From the IMG/VR virus record IMGVR_UViG_2778261502_000007, positions 1 to 45,005 of that record: a stretch of 45,005 nt of DNA. The stretch is one strand, 5' to 3'. Source of the DNA: a virus. Lineage: Duplodnaviria; Heunggongvirae; Uroviricota; Caudoviricetes. A program made the position numbers and the translations under genes. A model generated the notes under the pieces. That model had not been told where the DNA came from. It ran no database searches and was given only the letters and a program-made list of their open reading frames with translations. Of the stretch, positions 13,142 through 23,462 are shown one piece after another; the first letter of the stretch is position 1, and every line of letters begins with the position of its first letter.

Positions 13142-13217
<76 letters not shown>

Positions 13218-13220
13218 TAT

Positions 13221-13295
<75 letters not shown>

Positions 13296-13660
13296 GCAAA
13301 ACAAATGAGGTATAGGTTTTTCAGCACTGGCGTTTTTTTCGCGGGAAAGGTCTCGTATATCCTTTATCGCTCTCCCGAATTATAATGGAGACCAGTTATG
13401 ATTTCGGTGCTGTGTTTTTTGATACTATCGGAATAGTGCATTATTGGTGGGATTTTTTTGATGTTTCCTGGCAGGGGCTGATTATGCACTATCCCGATGT
13501 TATTAACATCACAAAATGAGGTGAGCCCCATGTGCGGGGGTGGTTTAAGTGGTTGTTTAGCGGGGAAACTACAGTATCTGATGGTATGTCAGGTATTTCG
13601 GGAGGCACCCGACACCTCACCTATATTATAATAATACTCTTCAGCACTTACTGATTTGAC

Positions 13661-13688
13661 CACCGCCTTAACAGGCGGTTTTTTTTCG
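13661..13688 (+). terminator. Intrinsic terminator
   Basis: CCGCC-TTAACA-GGCGG plus T8. Confidence 0.5.
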
Positions 13689-13859
13689 GTAATTTGCAGA
13701 ATTGTACGCTGAATAAGCATTACATCGTTAAATTTATAACTTATTCCGAATATGCGGTGCTTGCTTATTGTTAGCTTGCTGACATTTCTGTATCTTGCTG
13801 CGCCGCAGGTTTCCCCTGTAACGACGCTTGTATGATGAATCATTTAAACTTTGTAATTT

Positions 13860-13891
13860 GCCAGCCAGTCTCTGGTGGCTGGCTTTTTTTT
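13860..13891 (+). terminator. Intrinsic terminator
   Basis: GCCAGCCA-loop-TGGCTGGC plus T8. Confidence 0.55.
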
Positions 13892-13945
13892 GCAAGGTGT
13901 TCTGATAGTTCTGTTCGTCAGACTGGATTCCCGCAGAACAAAAAG

Positions 13946-14027
13946 CCGTCACTAACTCATTGGGTAAGAGTGCATAACACATATTGTTGTTTTGTGGTGC
14001 GGGGTTCGAGTCCCCGGTGACGGTCCA
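13946..14027 (+). other. tRNA-like element (tRNA remnant or atypical tRNA)
   Basis: Canonical acceptor CCGTCAC/GTGACGG, T-arm CGGGG-TTCGAGT-CCCCG and 3' TCCA, but anticodon arm does not fold canonically. Confidence 0.3.
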
Positions 14028-17473: not shown

Positions 17474-17581
17474 ATGTGGAAACCTACTGGTGACAAGTTA
17501 ATCACCGCATTGATTGACGGCAAGCCACAATACTTACGCATTGAAATGAGCGGTCAGCATACTCGTTTGATTCGTGAGTAA
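17474..17581 (+). CDS. Small 35 aa protein
   Basis: ATG after AGGAG; MWKPTGDKLITALIDGKPQYLRIEMSGQHTRLIRE. Confidence 0.3.
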   Translation: MWKPTGDKLITALIDGKPQYLRIEMSGQHTRLIRE

Positions 17582-17704
17582 CAGGCATTACAGCAGCCCT
17601 TCATGGTGAGGGGGTGCGATAATGCCAAAGCTCGTCATCGGCACCCGCCGCGCACCCAGCGCACTGGCCGATAGCGGGCTTTTTTATTCATAAAGCGAGG
17701 CTGT

Positions 17705-18493
17705 ATGAGCGAGAAATTGAAGATCGTCTATCGCCCGTTACAAGAACTGTCTCCGTATGCACACAATGCCAGGACACACAGCCCTGAGCAGGTGGCACAA
17801 CTGGTAGAAAGCATTAAGCAATTCGGCTGGACTAATCCGGTGCTGATTGATGAAAAGGGCGAAATTATTGCTGGTCACGGTCGCGTTATGGCGGCTGAAG
17901 TGTTCAGAATGGATTCCGTTCCGGTCATCGTTCTGTCAGGTCTGACGGATGATCAGAAAAAGGCGTACCGCCTGGCAGATAATCGCCTGCCGATGAATGC
18001 TGGCTGGGATGAAGATCTGTTACGGATGGAGCTGTCGGAGCTAATCAATGCTGATTTTGATATTTCCCTGACAGGATTCAGCCCGACAGAAATTGATGAA
18101 CTGTTGACGGATATTTTGCCAGGTACAGGAAATGAGGAGGAACCGTACACGACGAAAATTGATACGCCTGTTTATGAGCCGTCAGGCGATAAACCGGATA
18201 TCAGTGAACTGTACGACGATACGAAAACTCAGGAGCTGATCAGCCGGATACGTTCGGCGTCCCTTGATCCTGATATCGAAAAATTCCTCCTGTGCGCGGC
18301 AGAACGCCACACGGTGTTTAATTTCAGCAGAATTGCGGATTATTACGCTCACGCCCCCGCTGAAATTCAGCACCTTTTTGAGGAGTCGGCGCTGGTGATC
18401 ATTGATTACCAGCAGGCTATTGAAAATGGATTTGTCCGGATGACGCAGCACATGGTGGAGATCATGCATGGCGGGGAGGAGGAATATGCGTGA
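17705..18493 (+). CDS. ParB N-terminal-domain (ParB/Srx-like) protein
   Basis: ...NPVLIDEKGEIIAGHGRVMAAEV... matches ParB box pattern; acidic C-terminal half. Confidence 0.65.
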   Translation: MSEKLKIVYRPLQELSPYAHNARTHSPEQVAQLVESIKQFGWTNPVLIDEKGEIIAGHGRVMAAEVFRMDSVPVIVLSGLTDDQKKAYRLADNRLPMNAGWDEDLLRMELSELINADFDISLTGFSPTEIDELLTDILPGTGNEEEPYTTKIDTPVYEPSGDKPDISELYDDTKTQELISRIRSASLDPDIEKFLLCAAERHTVFNFSRIADYYAHAPAEIQHLFEESALVIIDYQQAIENGFVRMTQHMVEIMHGGEEEYA

Positions 18494-19418
18494 TGATTTT
18501 TGCGCCTTTATTCTGACTCACGGGCGACCGGACAAAGTTCTGACTTACCGGACGTTGCGTCGTGCTGGCTATACCGGGAAAATTTTTATCGTTGTTGATG
18601 ATGAAGATAAGACACGGCATCAGTACATAGCTGATTTTGGTGAACAGGTGCTGGTGTTTTCCAAAGCCGATATCGCCAGTCGTTTTGACGAAGCCGATAA
18701 TTTCGGTGACCGCCGCTCAATTTTTTACGCCCGTAATGCCTGTTTCGACCTGGCAAAACTGGTCGGGTGTAAATACTTCATTCAGCTCGATGATGATTAT
18801 CACGAGTTCCAGTTTCGGGTGGATCGCAACTATGACCAGGCCTATTTTCCGATAAGGAAACTGGATGCGATCCTTTCTGAAATGCTGGCGTATTACGAAT
18901 CAATACCCGCGCTTTCCATCGCTATGTCGCAGGGCGGGGATTTTCTTGGTGACAATGGCGCTCATGCTTCATGGGTGAAACGTAAGGCAATGAACAGCTT
19001 TATCTGTTCGGTTGACCGACCGTTCTCATTCATGGGACGCATTAACGAGGATGTGAATACGTACACGAATCTCGGTCGCCGTGGAGAATTGTTTATGACG
19101 ATCGGTGCTGTCCAGTTAGGGCAGAAACAGACGCAGAAAAACAGTGGCGGAATGACCGAGCTGTATCTGGATTCCGGAACCTACGTTAAAAGTTTTTACT
19201 CCGTCATGTATGCACCGTCATGCGTAAAAATCTCACTGATGGGCGCCAGCCATAAACGCATTCACCACCAGGTCACCTGGAACAACGCTGCAGTAAAAAT
19301 TCTTCACGAAAAATACAGGAAGAAGACACCCTGCATATCAATGGGGGTGACAAATGATTCCGTATTCGAAAGTCGAGTCTCTGGCAGCGTGCCGGATGAC
19401 TGCACAACAAATCGCTGA
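18486..19418 (+). CDS. GT-A-fold-like protein with DxD motif (possible glycosyltransferase)
   Basis: FILTHGRPDKVL...IFIVVDDED and YFIQLDDDYHEF fit GT-A beta-alpha-beta plus DxD pattern; no TM segments; start taken from track ORF 18468 codon offsets. Confidence 0.4.
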   Translation: MRDDFCAFILTHGRPDKVLTYRTLRRAGYTGKIFIVVDDEDKTRHQYIADFGEQVLVFSKADIASRFDEADNFGDRRSIFYARNACFDLAKLVGCKYFIQLDDDYHEFQFRVDRNYDQAYFPIRKLDAILSEMLAYYESIPALSIAMSQGGDFLGDNGAHASWVKRKAMNSFICSVDRPFSFMGRINEDVNTYTNLGRRGELFMTIGAVQLGQKQTQKNSGGMTELYLDSGTYVKSFYSVMYAPSCVKISLMGASHKRIHHQVTWNNAAVKILHEKYRKKTPCISMGVTNDSVFESRVSGSVPDDCTTNR

Positions 19419-19605
19419 CGTTCTGGATGTTGATCTGAATCGACTGAAAGAAAATCGGGAAGCAATGACAAATTTTTATGCGTCCATCCGTAAGGGCAGA
19501 GCGAAAGGTGAAGCCGAGTTACGGGCGGCATTGTTTAAGCTTGCCAGAAAAGGGGATGCCTTTGCTCTGCGCGAACTACTCAGGGTGGATAAAAATCAGG
19601 ACTAA
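19354..19605 (+). CDS. Small HTH protein upstream of terminase
   Basis: 83 aa, HTH-like MTAQQIADVLDVDLNRL; overlaps 3' end of previous gene. Confidence 0.35.
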   Translation: MIPYSKVESLAACRMTAQQIADVLDVDLNRLKENREAMTNFYASIRKGRAKGEAELRAALFKLARKGDAFALRELLRVDKNQD

Positions 19606-19608
19606 CTG

Positions 19609-20691
19609 ATGAGCAGACCGGACTGGGGGGCGTTGCAGCAGGAGTATATTGCTGAATACACCCGCTCCGGTATATCTCCGGTGGCATGGTGTGAAGCAAG
19701 GGGACTGAATTACGCAACAGCCCGTCGTTACATCAAAAAACCTCCGAAAAATGCGCAGGCAGAAGTGCGCAAAACTGCGCAAAAAGGTGCGCAAAAGAAA
19801 ACTGCGCAAAAGCGAACCGGCAAAACGGGGAAGGAAAAATCCAGAGTGGTTGTTTCTCCCGTTGCAGGAAATGATCAGGAAATTTTATTCAATCCCGATG
19901 AATTCGGCATCTCAGAGCAGCAGACGAAATTTGCGATGCTGGTTGCACAGGGGAGAAAACTCGTTGAGGCATATCGCCTGGCAGGATACGAGTCAGAGGG
20001 GAATGCGGCCTACGTAACTGCCAGCCAGCTCCTAAGAAATCCTAAGGTTTATCGGGCTATCTCATGGTTCCGCAATCAGTACCAGAAACGCTATACCGCA
20101 GACCTGGATTTACTGGTGAGTCAGTTGATGGCCATTGTCCAGGCCGACCCCAATCAGTTAGCACAATTTCGCCGTGTTAACTGCCGTTATTGCTGGGGCG
20201 AGAATCATCTCTACCAGTGGCGCGATATAGCAGAATTTGATAAGGCAGCGGCGCAGGCTTCCAGAGATGGCAAACCCGAACCGGAATATGGAGGCCTTGG
20301 CTTTGTTGATAACGCCATACCCAATCCGGACTGCCCGAAGTGCTGCGGTGAGGGAACGGGGCAGCTTTATATGGCTGATACCACTCTGCTTGATGGGGAT
20401 GCACGGCAATTATATGCAGGGGCAAAGCTCGGGAAATTTGGTGTTGAGATCCTGCTGGAGGATAAGTCTGCCGCCCGGCGCGAACTTATCAAGCTGATAA
20501 TGGCGACGAAAGGAAGTTCTGCTGGTGGTGCAACTGACAGTCGCAATGATCTGGAGCTTGAAGGACTGAGGCTTCGCAATGAAAAGCTGCGCACTGAGAT
20601 TGAAAACCTCAAAAAAGGCGTGGGTGGTGAGAATAACGAAATAATTATCCACAACTCTCTGCCGATGCCGGGAGTGGATAATGTCGATTGA
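19609..20691 (+). CDS. Terminase small subunit-like
   Basis: N-terminal HTH GISPVAWCEARGLNYATARRYIKK, basic linker, coiled-coil; overlaps terminase large subunit start. Confidence 0.55.
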   Translation: MSRPDWGALQQEYIAEYTRSGISPVAWCEARGLNYATARRYIKKPPKNAQAEVRKTAQKGAQKKTAQKRTGKTGKEKSRVVVSPVAGNDQEILFNPDEFGISEQQTKFAMLVAQGRKLVEAYRLAGYESEGNAAYVTASQLLRNPKVYRAISWFRNQYQKRYTADLDLLVSQLMAIVQADPNQLAQFRRVNCRYCWGENHLYQWRDIAEFDKAAAQASRDGKPEPEYGGLGFVDNAIPNPDCPKCCGEGTGQLYMADTTLLDGDARQLYAGAKLGKFGVEILLEDKSAARRELIKLIMATKGSSAGGATDSRNDLELEGLRLRNEKLRTEIENLKKGVGGENNEIIIHNSLPMPGVDNVD

Positions 20692-22009
20692 AATCTACCT
20701 CCCAAAACCTCATGAGGGGCAAATAGCTGCATGGACGGCGGCAATAGAGGAACGCTTCCACGCGGTATGCTGTGGTCGTCGCTGGGGTAAAACGGTGATG
20801 CTGGTGAATATCGCTACCAGTTTCGCGACGCGGAAATTTGCCGTTCCTACCACCGGGCAGCTTATCGCGGGTAGGGTGGGGATTTTTACCGCACAATACC
20901 GCCAGTACCAGGAAATCTGGGATGAAATTAGCGCCGTTCTGCAACCGCTGATCCTCAGCCAGTCAAAAAATGAAAAGCGCATCATTCTCCGTAATGGGGG
21001 GCGCATCGACTTTTGGGTAACGGACAATAACAAACTGGCCGGGCGTGGGCGTAAGTATCACGCTGTGCTGATTGATGAGGCCGCATTCACTAAATCGCCG
21101 GAAATGCTCGAGGAAATCTGGCCCCGCGCTATACGCCCGACGCTTGTCGATTACCGTGGCTGTGCCTGGGTATTTTCCACACCAAACGGTATCGACGAGA
21201 GCAATTTTTTCTACGCGATATGCCACGATGAATCCCTGGGATTTGTCATGCACCATGCGCCAACTTCATCGAATCCGTATATTCCGAAAGAAGAACTGGA
21301 GGAAACGGAGAAGAAATCCGATCCGCGCGTATGGCAGCAGGAATATCTTGCCGAGTTCGTGGACTGGTCCAAAGACGCGTTACTTGATGTCGATAAGCTG
21401 CTGGTGGATGGTCAGCCGGTTGACATGCCGCCGCACTGCGACATGATTTTCGCAGTGATGGATACGGCACTGAAAGGCGGGACCGAAAATGACGGTACAG
21501 GCGTGGTGTATTTCGCCTGGGAGTCAACATATTCGGACGAGCCAAAACTGACGATTATTGACTGGGATGTGACGCAAATTAAAGCGTCATTGCTTCCTGA
21601 GTATATCCCCGGTGTTTATGACAACCTCGAACGCCTGGCGAAATTATGCCGTCCGCGTCTGGGCAGCCAGGGAATTTTTATGGAAGACGCTGCGATGGGG
21701 GCGATCCTCAACCAGAAAGCGGAAACCGAAGGCTGGGATATGACGCCGATTAAATCGGCACTAACCAGCAAAGGCAAAGACGAACGGGCGGTGATGGCAT
21801 CCGGATATCACTATCAGGGGATGTGCAAAATCGTCCGGGAGGCTTACGACAAGACCGTTTCATTCAAACGCACCACTGCAAACCACCTCATTAAACAAAT
21901 CGCCGGGTTCCACCTGGCAGACAAAGACGCGCATAAACGTGCTGATGACCTTTTCGATTGTTATACCTACGGATTGATCATCGCGCACGGTAATTACGCG
22001 GCGTTGTAA
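20681..22009 (+). CDS. Terminase large subunit
   Basis: Walker A-like CCGRRWGKT, Walker B VLIDEAAF, C-terminal nuclease-like acidic residues. Confidence 0.75.
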   Translation: MSIEIYLPKPHEGQIAAWTAAIEERFHAVCCGRRWGKTVMLVNIATSFATRKFAVPTTGQLIAGRVGIFTAQYRQYQEIWDEISAVLQPLILSQSKNEKRIILRNGGRIDFWVTDNNKLAGRGRKYHAVLIDEAAFTKSPEMLEEIWPRAIRPTLVDYRGCAWVFSTPNGIDESNFFYAICHDESLGFVMHHAPTSSNPYIPKEELEETEKKSDPRVWQQEYLAEFVDWSKDALLDVDKLLVDGQPVDMPPHCDMIFAVMDTALKGGTENDGTGVVYFAWESTYSDEPKLTIIDWDVTQIKASLLPEYIPGVYDNLERLAKLCRPRLGSQGIFMEDAAMGAILNQKAETEGWDMTPIKSALTSKGKDERAVMASGYHYQGMCKIVREAYDKTVSFKRTTANHLIKQIAGFHLADKDAHKRADDLFDCYTYGLIIAHGNYAAL

Positions 22010-22022
22010 AAATCAGGATATT

Positions 22023-23462
22023 TTGATGGCAGAGATCGAGATTACTGGCGGCCTCGATTCAGCACTGATGCGTATTCTTGAGGCTGAAGAAATTCAGCCG
22101 GGAACCGATATCGGCTATGAATTGTGTAAGCTGCTGTGGCAATTCCATCCTCTGGGCGGAAAACTTGTCGAAAAACCCATACTGATGGCGATGTGTAAAC
22201 CGCGGCAGTATAACGTGGAGACAGACCCTGACGAGAGGGTTGTACGGCGTTTCCAGGAAGTATGGGAACGTATGAAGGTTAACGAGAAGATTAAAAATCT
22301 GTTTTTTTTGTCTCGTTGCTACGGTGCCGCAGCGATCGGCGTGGGCACCGACAGTGTTTCATGTCGAGAGCCGCTTCCGACATTCGGACTGACAGAAGAG
22401 GATGTGTATATCAACGCGTGGGATCCGTTGAACGCTTCCGGTTCGATGGTGACTGACCAGAACCCAAACAGCCCGTTTTTCCAGGAAGCCAATAAAAAGC
22501 TGAAGATTGGCGGAAAAGACTGGCATCCGTCGCGCACACTTAAAATCTTCAACGGCACACCGATTTATCTGGAGTTTCAGAGTTCAACGTTCGGATTCAC
22601 CGGGCGAAGCGTGTTTCAGCGAGTTCTTTATTCCCTGAAATCCTATATCAATACGATGGAGGCGAATGATCTCGTCAGCCAGAAGGCAGGCGTACTGGTG
22701 GCTAAAGTTGTGCAGAACAGTTCGAAAATTGACGGGATCATGGCTGCTGCCACGGGGCGTAAAAGGGAAAACGTGAAAGCCGCCAAAAATAAAGGCGTGT
22801 TGAGTATTGGAAAAGACGAAGACGTAAGTTCACTGAACCTGCAAAACATCGACGGGGCGCTGAATACTGCCCGCGACAACATCATTGCTGATATTGCCGC
22901 CGGGAGTGATGTTCCGGCCATTATTATCAAGGAAGAAGCGTTCAGTAACGGATTCGGTGAAGGTAAGGAGGACTCGAAAGCCATCAGCCAGTATATCGAT
23001 GGTGTGCGCCAGCAGATTGAGCCTGTGATGGATTATTTCGAACGCCTGGTGCAGTACATCGCCTGGAACGAGGAATTTTATCAGTCGCTGAAAAATGATT
23101 ACCCGGACATTATAACCGACGACTATAAAACCACGTTTTACCAGTGGCGACGTGAATTTACCGCGACGTGGCAGGAGCTGGTGGAGGAGTCGCCGGACAA
23201 ACGCCGGGAAAGCGACAGTAAAGTGATTCAACAGGCGATAGCACTTTTCTCTGCCGTGTCGCCACAGGTTGATCCTGAAAACCGCGCCGCCCTCGCTGAA
23301 TGGCTGGCAAGCCTTGTTAATGCCACGCAAACCTATGGCGAAGCTCCACTCATCATTGATGTGGACGCGCTGGCGAATTATGAACCACCGAAGCAGGAGA
23401 CGCCTGATGGCAATTTCCAGCCGGGCGGTGAGGAAGAAGAAACGGATCAGGACGCTGTATGA
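22023..23462 (+). CDS. Portal protein (putative)
   Basis: 479 aa directly after terminase large subunit; acidic C-terminus. Confidence 0.5.
   Translation: MMAEIEITGGLDSALMRILEAEEIQPGTDIGYELCKLLWQFHPLGGKLVEKPILMAMCKPRQYNVETDPDERVVRRFQEVWERMKVNEKIKNLFFLSRCYGAAAIGVGTDSVSCREPLPTFGLTEEDVYINAWDPLNASGSMVTDQNPNSPFFQEANKKLKIGGKDWHPSRTLKIFNGTPIYLEFQSSTFGFTGRSVFQRVLYSLKSYINTMEANDLVSQKAGVLVAKVVQNSSKIDGIMAAATGRKRENVKAAKNKGVLSIGKDEDVSSLNLQNIDGALNTARDNIIADIAAGSDVPAIIIKEEAFSNGFGEGKEDSKAISQYIDGVRQQIEPVMDYFERLVQYIAWNEEFYQSLKNDYPDIITDDYKTTFYQWRREFTATWQELVEESPDKRRESDSKVIQQAIALFSAVSPQVDPENRAALAEWLASLVNATQTYGEAPLIIDVDALANYEPPKQETPDGNFQPGGEEEETDQDAV

Follow-up and report, generated by a model that had tools for sequence, protein, structure and literature searches.

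A TAGT-family glycosyltransferase is translationally coupled to a ParB-like protein that carries its conserved partner domain in a pre-terminase module of phages and prophages

Several described systems come close to the one examined here. Among the characterised members of the TET-associated glycosyltransferase (TAGT) family that act on DNA, JGT uses 5-hydroxymethyluracil (5hmU), the 5mYOX-linked glycosyltransferases use 5-hydroxymethylcytosine (5hmC), and the T6 enzyme uses the glucose carried by 5hmC. In the 5mYOX176/ParB176 system, a ParB-like protein activates a phage thymine dioxygenase on double-stranded DNA (O'Toole et al., PNAS 2026, PMC13229309). ParB176 is built from a nucleotide-binding domain (NBD), a short helical segment, a disordered linker of ~50 aa and a C-terminal domain (CTD), and it has no DNA-binding domain; NBD and CTD are both needed, and the gene lies beside that of the DNA-modifying enzyme, often near the terminase (PMC13229309). 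ParB-dependent 5mYOX clusters have been reported together with kinases, GATases and AADTs rather than with glycosyltransferases. In addition, DNA modification at packaging has been predicted for a 'ParB-terminase large subunit locus' (PMC4738411, citing Iyer 2013). Here we analyse a 45,005-nt stretch of phage DNA, referred to throughout as the window (IMG/VR virus record IMGVR_UViG_2778261502_000007, positions 1 to 45,005), in which positions 17705-19418 are filled by two same-strand open reading frames (ORFs): ORF A, encoding a ParB/Srx-fold protein, and ORF B, encoding a glycosyltransferase of the TAGT family.

Judged by gene order and residue conservation, the constant partner of this glycosyltransferase clade is the CTD of ORF A and not its ParB fold. 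The partner unit comprises the C-terminal 115 aa of ORF A, namely the motif Y-[TS]-x-K-x3-P-x-Y and the helical domain that follows it. When partners are aligned across lineages, the invariant residues fall in this peptide and in the helical domain, and the ParB fold is the least conserved part of the protein. The features of the module are as follows:

17705-18493, plus strand: ORF A, 262 aa, ParB/Srx-fold protein
17705-18109, plus strand: ORF A residues 1-135, ParB/Srx nucleotide-binding-type domain and helix-helix segment
18146-18184, plus strand: ORF A linear motif Y148-T149-x-K151-I-D-T-P155-V-Y157-E-P-S, conserved, in a segment predicted to be disordered
18185-18493, plus strand: helical CTD of ORF A, acidic, without a Pfam family
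18475-18493, plus strand: translational coupling junction, with a Shine-Dalgarno (SD) sequence GGAGGAGG at 18475-18482, the glycosyltransferase ATG at 18486 and the ORF A stop codon TGA at 18491-18493
18486-19418, plus strand: ORF B, TAGT-family GT-A glycosyltransferase, 310 aa
18789-18797 and 19044-19055, plus strand: ORF B motifs DDD (residues 102-104) and N-E-D-V (residues 187-190), which stand with R14

All bacterial and archaeal-virus orthologs in alignment A4 keep Y148, P155 and Y157. In a logo of 83 unique sequences, chosen by a pattern that itself fixes Y, P and Y, the residue after the first Tyr is Thr or Ser in 82 of the 83 and the Lys is retained in 75 of them; in four loci the motif Pro is replaced by Ile or Leu. 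AlphaFold2 (AF2) assigned the motif segment a predicted local distance difference test (pLDDT) score below 50. The helical domain follows the consensus ...FLxxAAxRHxVFNFxKIAxYYAH...SALVIIDxxxAIxxGY, and the CTD yielded no Pfam family match and no convincing structural neighbour. Many phages encode stand-alone CTD proteins of 96-159 aa, devoid of the ParB fold, upstream of the glycosyltransferase. Vibrio phage pv27 gp328, which matches the profile at E 4.5e-54, and the proteins of loci L096 and L098 are of this kind, and such CTD-only partners account for at least 15 loci in a diverse set of 76.

The co-occurrence of CTD and glycosyltransferase is obligate in the collections that we compared. 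A ParB/CTD gene lies directly upstream of the glycosyltransferase gene in all 81 of 81 IMG/VR loci and in 17 of 19 diverse loci, the two exceptions being L095, which encodes the motif just upstream, and L091, which is a 1.2-kb fragment. In a further set the partner was scored in 52 of 65 loci; the remaining 13, apparently without a CTD, proved to be an artefact of greedy ORF picking, with the motif just upstream of the glycosyltransferase in most of them. Comparison of the CTD and glycosyltransferase match lists for an annotated phage collection placed the CTD in 28 records, all of which also encode a glycosyltransferase of this clade (at least 39% identity), and in the same collection no CTD accompanied the distant TAGTs of T4-like Aeromonas phages or of a Porphyromonas phage. 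Because the same order is kept in 81 of 81 IMG/VR loci and recurs across phyla, the pair is not a chance juxtaposition. A candidate Rosetta-stone fusion of CTD and glycosyltransferase came down to a single probable read-through protein (P0080) and was not counted as evidence. The sequence-only reading of this region had paired the glycosyltransferase with a ParB/Srx protein: the pair is real, but the element that is linked to the enzyme is the CTD and not the ParB/Srx fold.

The two genes are also joined at the level of translation. They overlap by 8 nt (ATGCGTGA), the start of ORF B lying over the stop of ORF A. A mechanical call extends ORF B over 18468-19418, and the ATG at 18486 is the start assigned by PGAP in relatives (L001); the true start is likely to be this ATG, behind the SD sequence GGAGGAGG. 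Overlap between the ParB and glycosyltransferase genes recurs in the high-GC phage of locus L080, in phage c5, in HHTV-2 and in phi jlb1.

ORF B is a clear TAGT. It matches the Pfam family TAGT PF20691 ('TET-associated glycosyltransferase') at E 3e-35 and 122.4 bits (cutoff 27.5), with residues 14-228 aligned to model positions 4-205 of 205, and PHROG 842 at E 1.4e-102; the recent PGAP name for its relatives is 'GREB1-related protein'. The protein has a GT-A fold with a DxD metal/nucleotide-sugar site and an R...DDD...ED motif, of which R14, DDD 102-104 and E188-D189 are invariant in a 13-sequence alignment (A1). The sequence-only reading had called a GT-A-like DxD protein at this position, and the structure prediction that it proposed as a check returned the GT-A fold. 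The globular model and the composition of ORF B point to a soluble protein, its charge is near neutral to basic, and its last ~20 aa form an E. coli-specific tail. A sequence search of the ORF B profile against the PDB gave no match, and neither PADLOC nor NCBIfam gave a model matching the glycosyltransferase. The clade itself is distinct and highly conserved: the 142 newly retrieved cluster representatives that were compared share at least 39% identity, vs about 25% to the TAGTs of T4-like phages. A viral-contig scan that started from the distant homolog P0371 returned no match. Like the rest of the TAGT family (JGT, the T6 beta-alpha-GT, the 5mYOX-linked phage GT-A enzymes and human GREB1), ORF B shows a full-length hidden Markov model match, the GT-A fold and the R...DDD...ED motif, and it is phage-encoded near DNA-metabolism genes. 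Unlike these relatives, it was found, in the window ORFs and neighbours scanned, with no TET/JBP enzyme, hydroxymethylase or primary glycosyltransferase, so that the contextual hallmark of the family is lacking. The clade of ORF B further differs from the T4-like and Porphyromonas-phage TAGTs in having the CTD partner.

ORF A carries the ParB N-terminal (Srx-like) fold, in line with the ParB-like call of the sequence-only reading. The match to Pfam ParB_N is just above threshold (E 4e-6, 27.2 bits, cutoff 26.3) and that to PHROG 620 'ParB-like partition protein' is strong (E 2.9e-88), while phmmer aligned residues 7-93 to Spo0J. Box II reads GHGR vs GERR, so that the last Arg is retained and the Glu and the first Arg are substituted; N21, R23, S36 and N93 are conserved in enterobacterial orthologs. 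Together, the AF2 model and the alignment divide the protein into an NBD (1-95), helices (103-134), a disordered segment (136-165) and the CTD (166-255). We rejected ORF A as the partition ParB of a ParABS system: a Pfam scan found neither a helix-turn-helix (HTH) nor a ParB C-terminal dimerisation domain, TIGR00180 scored 34.5 bits and thus below its cutoff of 58.45, and no ParA turned up in the window scan or among the annotated genes of the related HBUT-L prophage of E. coli.

The ParB module is shared with phage DNA methyltransferases. Over residues 10-144, ORF A aligns with the N-terminal part of the PADLOC Type II methyltransferase model (MTase_II, 1.6e-37) and of PHROG 498 'DNA methyltransferase' (3.4e-50). 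A tblastn search with residues 1-135 hit 380 phage records, and among the matches listed, N-termini of adenine DNA methyltransferases (44-56% identity) are frequent; these N-termini resemble the ParB module of ORF A more closely than the corresponding modules of partner orthologs from other phyla do. We regard the ParB N-module as an exchangeable accessory, common to phage DNA adenine methyltransferases.

By its published description, ParB176 has the same layout as ORF A, that is, an NBD, a helical segment, a disordered linker and a CTD without a DNA-binding domain. The partner enzyme of ORF A is, however, a TAGT glycosyltransferase and not a dioxygenase, with no adjacent 5mYOX and no TET_JBP match in the window ORFs scanned, and the NBD is dispensable in many relatives of ORF A whereas it is required in ParB176. 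The order ParB, glycosyltransferase, 83-aa ORF, small terminase subunit (TerS) and large terminase subunit (TerL) in the window is that of a ParB-terminase (Tls) locus, in which a gene with a ParB domain and one for a predicted nucleic-acid-modifying enzyme directly precede the terminase genes. The phage and prophage DNA adenine methyltransferases that carry a fused ParB N-module (PHROG 498, PADLOC MTase_II) resemble ORF A in this module (44-56% identity) and in their pre-terminase position. In these proteins, the catalytic domain lies in the same chain, and the reaction, which methylates an exocyclic amine, does not depend on a pre-modified base; in the window, by contrast, the catalytic glycosyltransferase is a separate polypeptide that would be reached through the dedicated CTD. 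In two-component glycosyltransferases such as lactose synthase (beta4Gal-T1 with alpha-lactalbumin) and GtfA/GtfB, a small non-catalytic partner sets the activity or specificity of the enzyme. These may serve as an analogy: they have no relation in sequence or fold to the pair described here, and unlike them the partner in this clade is often fused to a ParB module of the NTP-binding type.

The module is widespread. Of 5426 complete E. coli genomes, 889 (16%) carry the 1.7-kb pair with a coverage of at least 80%, and fragments of it occur in a further ~680; E. coli W carries the pair, and induced phages that carry it have already been sequenced. A profile search of 1.84 billion cluster representatives gave 691 clusters at E <1e-30. 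The pair recurs in phages of Proteobacteria, Firmicutes, Bacteroidota, Actinobacteria and haloarchaea, and in one-genome-per-species and phage collections the clade was found, with 39-59% protein identity to the window glycosyltransferase, in Serratia, Pantoea, Superficieibacter, Thiotrichales, Hyphomonadaceae, Prosthecochloris, Bacteroides, Dysgonomonas, Lachnospiraceae, Faecousia and Saccharibacteria. It was also found in Lactobacillus phages c5, phiLdb, PMBT4 and phi jlb1, Nocardia phage NTR1, 190-kb Vibrio phages and the haloarchaeal virus HHTV-2. The sequence-only reading had regarded the two genes as not a standard pair, which the distribution over a sixth of complete E. coli genomes and many phyla contradicts; they are among the commonest cargoes of this position.

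Conservation is strongest for the enzyme. The order ParB, glycosyltransferase, 83-aa ORF and TerS is invariant in the 81 IMG/VR loci, even where TerL belongs to another family, and across these loci the glycosyltransferase is 62-83% identical where ParB is 53-68% and TerS 37-48% identical. Across bacterial phyla, glycosyltransferase identity is still 49-59%, and such values indicate that the gene is under strong purifying selection. Decayed copies were seen as well. In the virulent dairy Lactobacillus phages Ld17, LL-Ku and Ld25A (H54-H57, H65-H66), the glycosyltransferase gene is split in two or reduced to a 45-aa remnant and the ParB-like gene is kept; since the glycosyltransferase is broken in these phages, the module is dispensable under those conditions. 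E. coli TUM9757 (L185) shows the opposite pattern, with a truncated ParB gene and an intact glycosyltransferase. The ~680 genomes with fragments retain the 5' ParB portion alone, in one listed case beside ydaY, and PGAP gives the name ynaK to truncated copies of ORF A (window 17705-17960 vs L185 2919-3176, hits H100 and H101). The ynaK gene of the K-12-type Rac prophage appears to be a 5' relic of ORF A and thus of the ParB-glycosyltransferase module.

The window itself is a Rac-like lambdoid E. coli prophage, ~95% identical to prophages of E. coli W, LY180 and HBUT-L over the lysis-to-terminase region. Its left part holds an immunity/replication region with HTH repressors, YdaT, an IstB-like loader, DUF1627, DUF977 and a Q-like antiterminator, which is followed by three tRNA-like genes, two holins with a GH108 endolysin, ORF A and ORF B. 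Past ORF B come an 83-aa TerS-like ORF, TerS, TerL, the portal and the remaining virion genes, and the window runs on into tail genes; this bears out the placement just upstream of the terminase that had been read from the sequence:

19354-19605, plus strand: 83-aa ORF (PGAP start about 19396), resembling part of the small terminase subunit
19609-20691, plus strand: TerS
20681-22009, plus strand: TerL; TerS and TerL together match Pfam Terminase_2/Terminase_6N and PHROG 51/PHROG 2
22023-23462, plus strand: portal (Pfam Phage_portal_3, E 6.9e-15)

The 83-aa ORF matches PHROG 309 'terminase small subunit' (E 2.5e-22) and lies directly 3' of the glycosyltransferase gene in nearly all enterobacterial loci. 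In related prophages, PGAP names the portal gene (22023-23462) 'anti-CBASS protein Acb1 family protein', a label that is probably over-propagated or derived from a family model with a portal-fused domain in it. The three tRNA-like genes (13142-14027), which separate the Q-like antiterminator from the lysis genes, are tRNA-Thr(TGT), tRNA-Gly(TCC) and an 82-nt 'tRNA-Tyr' called by ARAGORN. The anticodon of this 'tRNA-Tyr', ATA at position 36, is unusual, and the gene may be a pseudo-tRNA or a spurious prediction. Two features precede ORF A. A 35-aa ORF at 17474-17581 (MWKPTGDKLITALIDGKPQYLRIEMSGQHTRLIRE) has a good Shine-Dalgarno sequence, AACAGGAGAAAATT, in front of it, and at 17640-17690, immediately 5' of the ORF A ribosome-binding site, a GC-rich hairpin is followed by TTTTTTATT; the hairpin was not called by the terminator scan because of its long loop.

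Across loci, the only recurrent neighbours of the glycosyltransferase are the partner at position -1 and, downstream, the small TerS-like protein, TerL, the portal and a Mu-F-like protein. Where the pair lies away from the terminase site it sits among replication genes, for example beside polA and a beta-clamp gene (L096), beside a beta-clamp gene (L165), or among the primase, exonuclease and helicase genes of Vibrio phage pv27, and in L086 it is preceded by C5-type and N6A-type DNA methyltransferases. In L165 (4179-6849, an IMG/VR phage), tandem TAGTs, one distant and one of this clade, lie 3' of the beta-clamp gene, with a 148-aa ORF and a CTD-only partner between them. In a Dysgonomonas prophage (L087 4242-5516), a PAPS-reductase/DUF3440 protein is encoded upstream of the ParB-glycosyltransferase pair. 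This protein may resemble IbrA of IbrA/IbrB, which would be another pair of a ParB-like protein and an enzyme.

Several members of the clade are fused to further enzymes. Glycosyltransferases were found joined to a class-I S-adenosylmethionine (SAM) methyltransferase at either the C- or the N-terminus, to Sulfotransfer_2 (a carbohydrate-type sulfotransferase) and to a second TAGT domain (P0248, P0252, P0275, P0286, P0260, P0267, P0265, P0291, P0293, P0268; L100 3581-5275). Three members bear an N-terminal extension of ~180 aa with a Walker A motif (GxxxxGKS/T) and no Pfam match, which we read from the motif as a putative P-loop kinase. This suggests that the transferred sugar is further decorated, and the fusions are consistent with a decorated glycan being assembled on a polymer. 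Directly 3' of the glycosyltransferase, seven metagenomic phage loci encode a radical SAM protein of 319 aa (L121 6199-7158, with equivalents in L122-L125) that has generic matches only (weak viperin, MoaA and SPASM-type). This protein, which is absent from the window, could tailor the sugar or prepare the acceptor. We rejected it as a hidden source of hydroxymethyl groups, given its generic matches and its absence from the window.

No source of a hydroxymethylated base was found with the module. Pfam scans of window ORFs, which included 20 early-region and lysis ORFs, detected no TET/JBP dioxygenase, ThyS-like hydroxymethylase or C5-methyltransferase. No TET/JBP or hydroxymethylase was present among the 25 commonest of 49 families formed by 111 neighbours in 12 diverse loci, or in 30 further neighbour proteins that included representatives of recurrent neighbour clusters, and the annotations of the related HBUT-L prophage and of the complete 31.8-kb genome of phage c5 list none either. 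Phage c5 is a cos phage in which ParB and the glycosyltransferase are the first two genes past cos and the largest unannotated ORF encodes 208 aa. A published mining study reported that ~65% of glycosyltransferase contigs are without 5mYOX and ThyS and treated these as not obviously DNA-modifying.

We tentatively favour the reading that ORF A and ORF B are the two subunits of a DNA glycosyltransferase that is expressed late and whose acceptor is not a hydroxymethylpyrimidine, a reading whose probability we place just short of an even chance. The two proteins would be made with the late genes as one translationally coupled enzyme. ORF B would be the catalytic GT-A subunit, working with a nucleotide-sugar donor and DxD-metal chemistry, and the C-terminal 115 residues of ORF A would dock on it and complete or gate the acceptor site, so that the CTD would act as an obligate non-catalytic subunit or specificity element. 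By analogy with the ParB-fused methyltransferases and the ParB-activated dioxygenases, the ParB/Srx module may be an optional add-on that couples the enzyme to double-stranded DNA around packaging. The product would be glycosylated phage DNA, which could allow restriction evasion or marking of the genome. A DNA target is favoured by the TAGT family membership of ORF B, by the shared ParB module and by the genomic contexts. If this reading is right, the lack of a hydroxymethylpyrimidine-forming enzyme with the module means that the acceptor must differ from the classical 5hmU or 5hmC.

A number of observations weigh against DNA glycosylation. Canonical DNA offers no hydroxyl acceptor for glycosyltransferases of this kind, and a hydroxymethyl-base source was absent from everything that we scanned. 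ORF A is strongly acidic (pI 4.5, net charge -26), and the Pfam scan found no recognisable DNA-binding domain in it; a DNA target is opposed because unmodified DNA has no acceptor and the partner is acidic. Many phages have a partner that works without the ParB module, so that only part of the family supports the link to DNA. Moreover, GREB1, itself a TAGT member, has been reported as a protein O-GlcNAc transferase. Finally, the two AF2 models, each of a single protein from a shallow alignment, are of moderate quality (pLDDT 61 and 64). The sequence-only reading had suggested that the pair could be a DNA or nucleotide modification module: the family, whose characterised members mostly glycosylate DNA, and the existence of ParB-like activators (PMC13229309) speak for it, and the failure to find a hydroxymethyl-base gene speaks against it. 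We consider DNA glycosylation plausible, and an anti-restriction role, which was also raised, is something that we only infer.

A more specific proposal is that the TAGT and its CTD subunit put a sugar directly on a canonical base or on another position of double-stranded DNA, independently of hydroxymethylation. We regard this proposal as improbable, though not far-fetched. In such a system, methylation, sulfation, phosphorylation or extension of the sugar would follow in some relatives.

Protein glycosylation, the main rival, is an unlikely explanation, though one with enough behind it to be taken seriously. Here the glycosyltransferase would modify another phage or host protein, with the partner as a specificity factor, or it would modify the partner itself, most economically on its own invariant Tyr or Thr/Ser, in the manner of glycogenin, whose own tyrosine it glucosylates. 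The near one-to-one co-occurrence with a partner that can be as small as ~100 aa is consistent with this, as is the peptide EEPYTTKIDTPVYEPSG of ORF A, which lies in an acidic, predicted-disordered segment and combines an invariant Tyr with a Thr/Ser in 82 of 83 sequences. The same can be said of the lack of an apparent DNA acceptor, of the activity reported for GREB1 and of the phage glycosyltransferases and O-methyltransferases in structural operons that have been proposed in the literature as capsid modifiers. However, a protein target leaves unexplained why the partner is frequently fused to a methyltransferase-type ParB module and why the pair is placed at the terminase or in replication modules, and K151, P155 and the E-P of the motif are conserved beyond what an acceptor site alone would need.

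A role of the partner as inhibitor or regulator strikes us as very unlikely. In this toxin-antitoxin-like arrangement, acidic ORF A would mask a glycosyltransferase aimed at a host molecule, in takeover or abortive infection. The gene order is reminiscent of type II toxin-antitoxin systems, with a small acidic protein first, a start/stop overlap and a near-neutral to basic enzyme, and the disordered conserved peptide could fill the active site. Yet the position in late or replication operons is conserved across domains of life and in virulent as well as temperate phages, whereas toxin-antitoxin modules are usually mobile and variable. In addition, the partner has no DNA-binding autoregulatory domain, PADLOC gave no match for the glycosyltransferase, and in some dairy phages the glycosyltransferase has decayed while the ParB gene persists.

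The classical TAGT chemistry is, in our estimate, similarly improbable and if anything slightly more so. The enzyme would then glycosylate 5hmU or 5hmC, or a sugar on them, with the hydroxymethylated base supplied by a gene outside the window, by another prophage or by the host. This is the only chemistry demonstrated for DNA-acting TAGTs, and ParB-like proteins do co-occur with 5mYOX enzymes, but no gene for such a base was detected in the 45-kb window, in the HBUT-L prophage annotation or in relatives from many phyla, the small size of the largest unannotated ORF in complete phage c5 speaks against it, and the enzymes reported with ParB-dependent 5mYOX are not glycosyltransferases. Hardly credible is a pair of unrelated functions, in which ORF A would be a packaging or partition nuclease, as the database labels 'ParB-like partition nuclease' and 'chromosome partitioning protein' have it, and ORF B an envelope glycosyltransferase of lysogenic conversion, in line with prophage GT-A enzymes such as TarP that modify cell-wall polymers according to the literature; translational coupling, near-universal co-occurrence, CTD-only forms without the ParB fold, the lack of ParA and HTH in the Pfam scan and related-prophage annotation, and a late-operon position without flippase or Gtr-type neighbours all stand against it.

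The module is not categorically new, since the locus type was predicted computationally before and its genes already bear the annotations 'ParB/Srx family' and 'GREB1-related'. Our literature search returned nothing usable on a ParB-glycosyltransferase-terminase module or on a ParB domain in M.EcoGII, and in the literature that we checked, the CTD partner with its conserved peptide, its stand-alone form and the consistent lack of a precursor enzyme appear to be undescribed.

Taken in its family, the module is a well-defined and very common member of the glycosyltransferase majority (~65% of contigs) that comes without a hydroxymethyl-base enzyme, and it is found in a tractable host. The presence of a constant, undescribed partner domain, together with an interchangeable ParB module of the methyltransferase type, sharpens the question of what these glycosyltransferases act on. 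If DNA is modified, this would bear on restriction evasion, on the targets of type IV restriction, on sequencing artefacts and on enzyme tools, and if the reaction proves to be independent of hydroxymethylation it would represent a new class of DNA modification, carried by about one sixth of complete E. coli genomes as well as by bacterial and archaeal viruses. If a protein is modified instead, a branch of a 'DNA glycosyltransferase' family would act on protein, which would bear on the disputed role of human GREB1.

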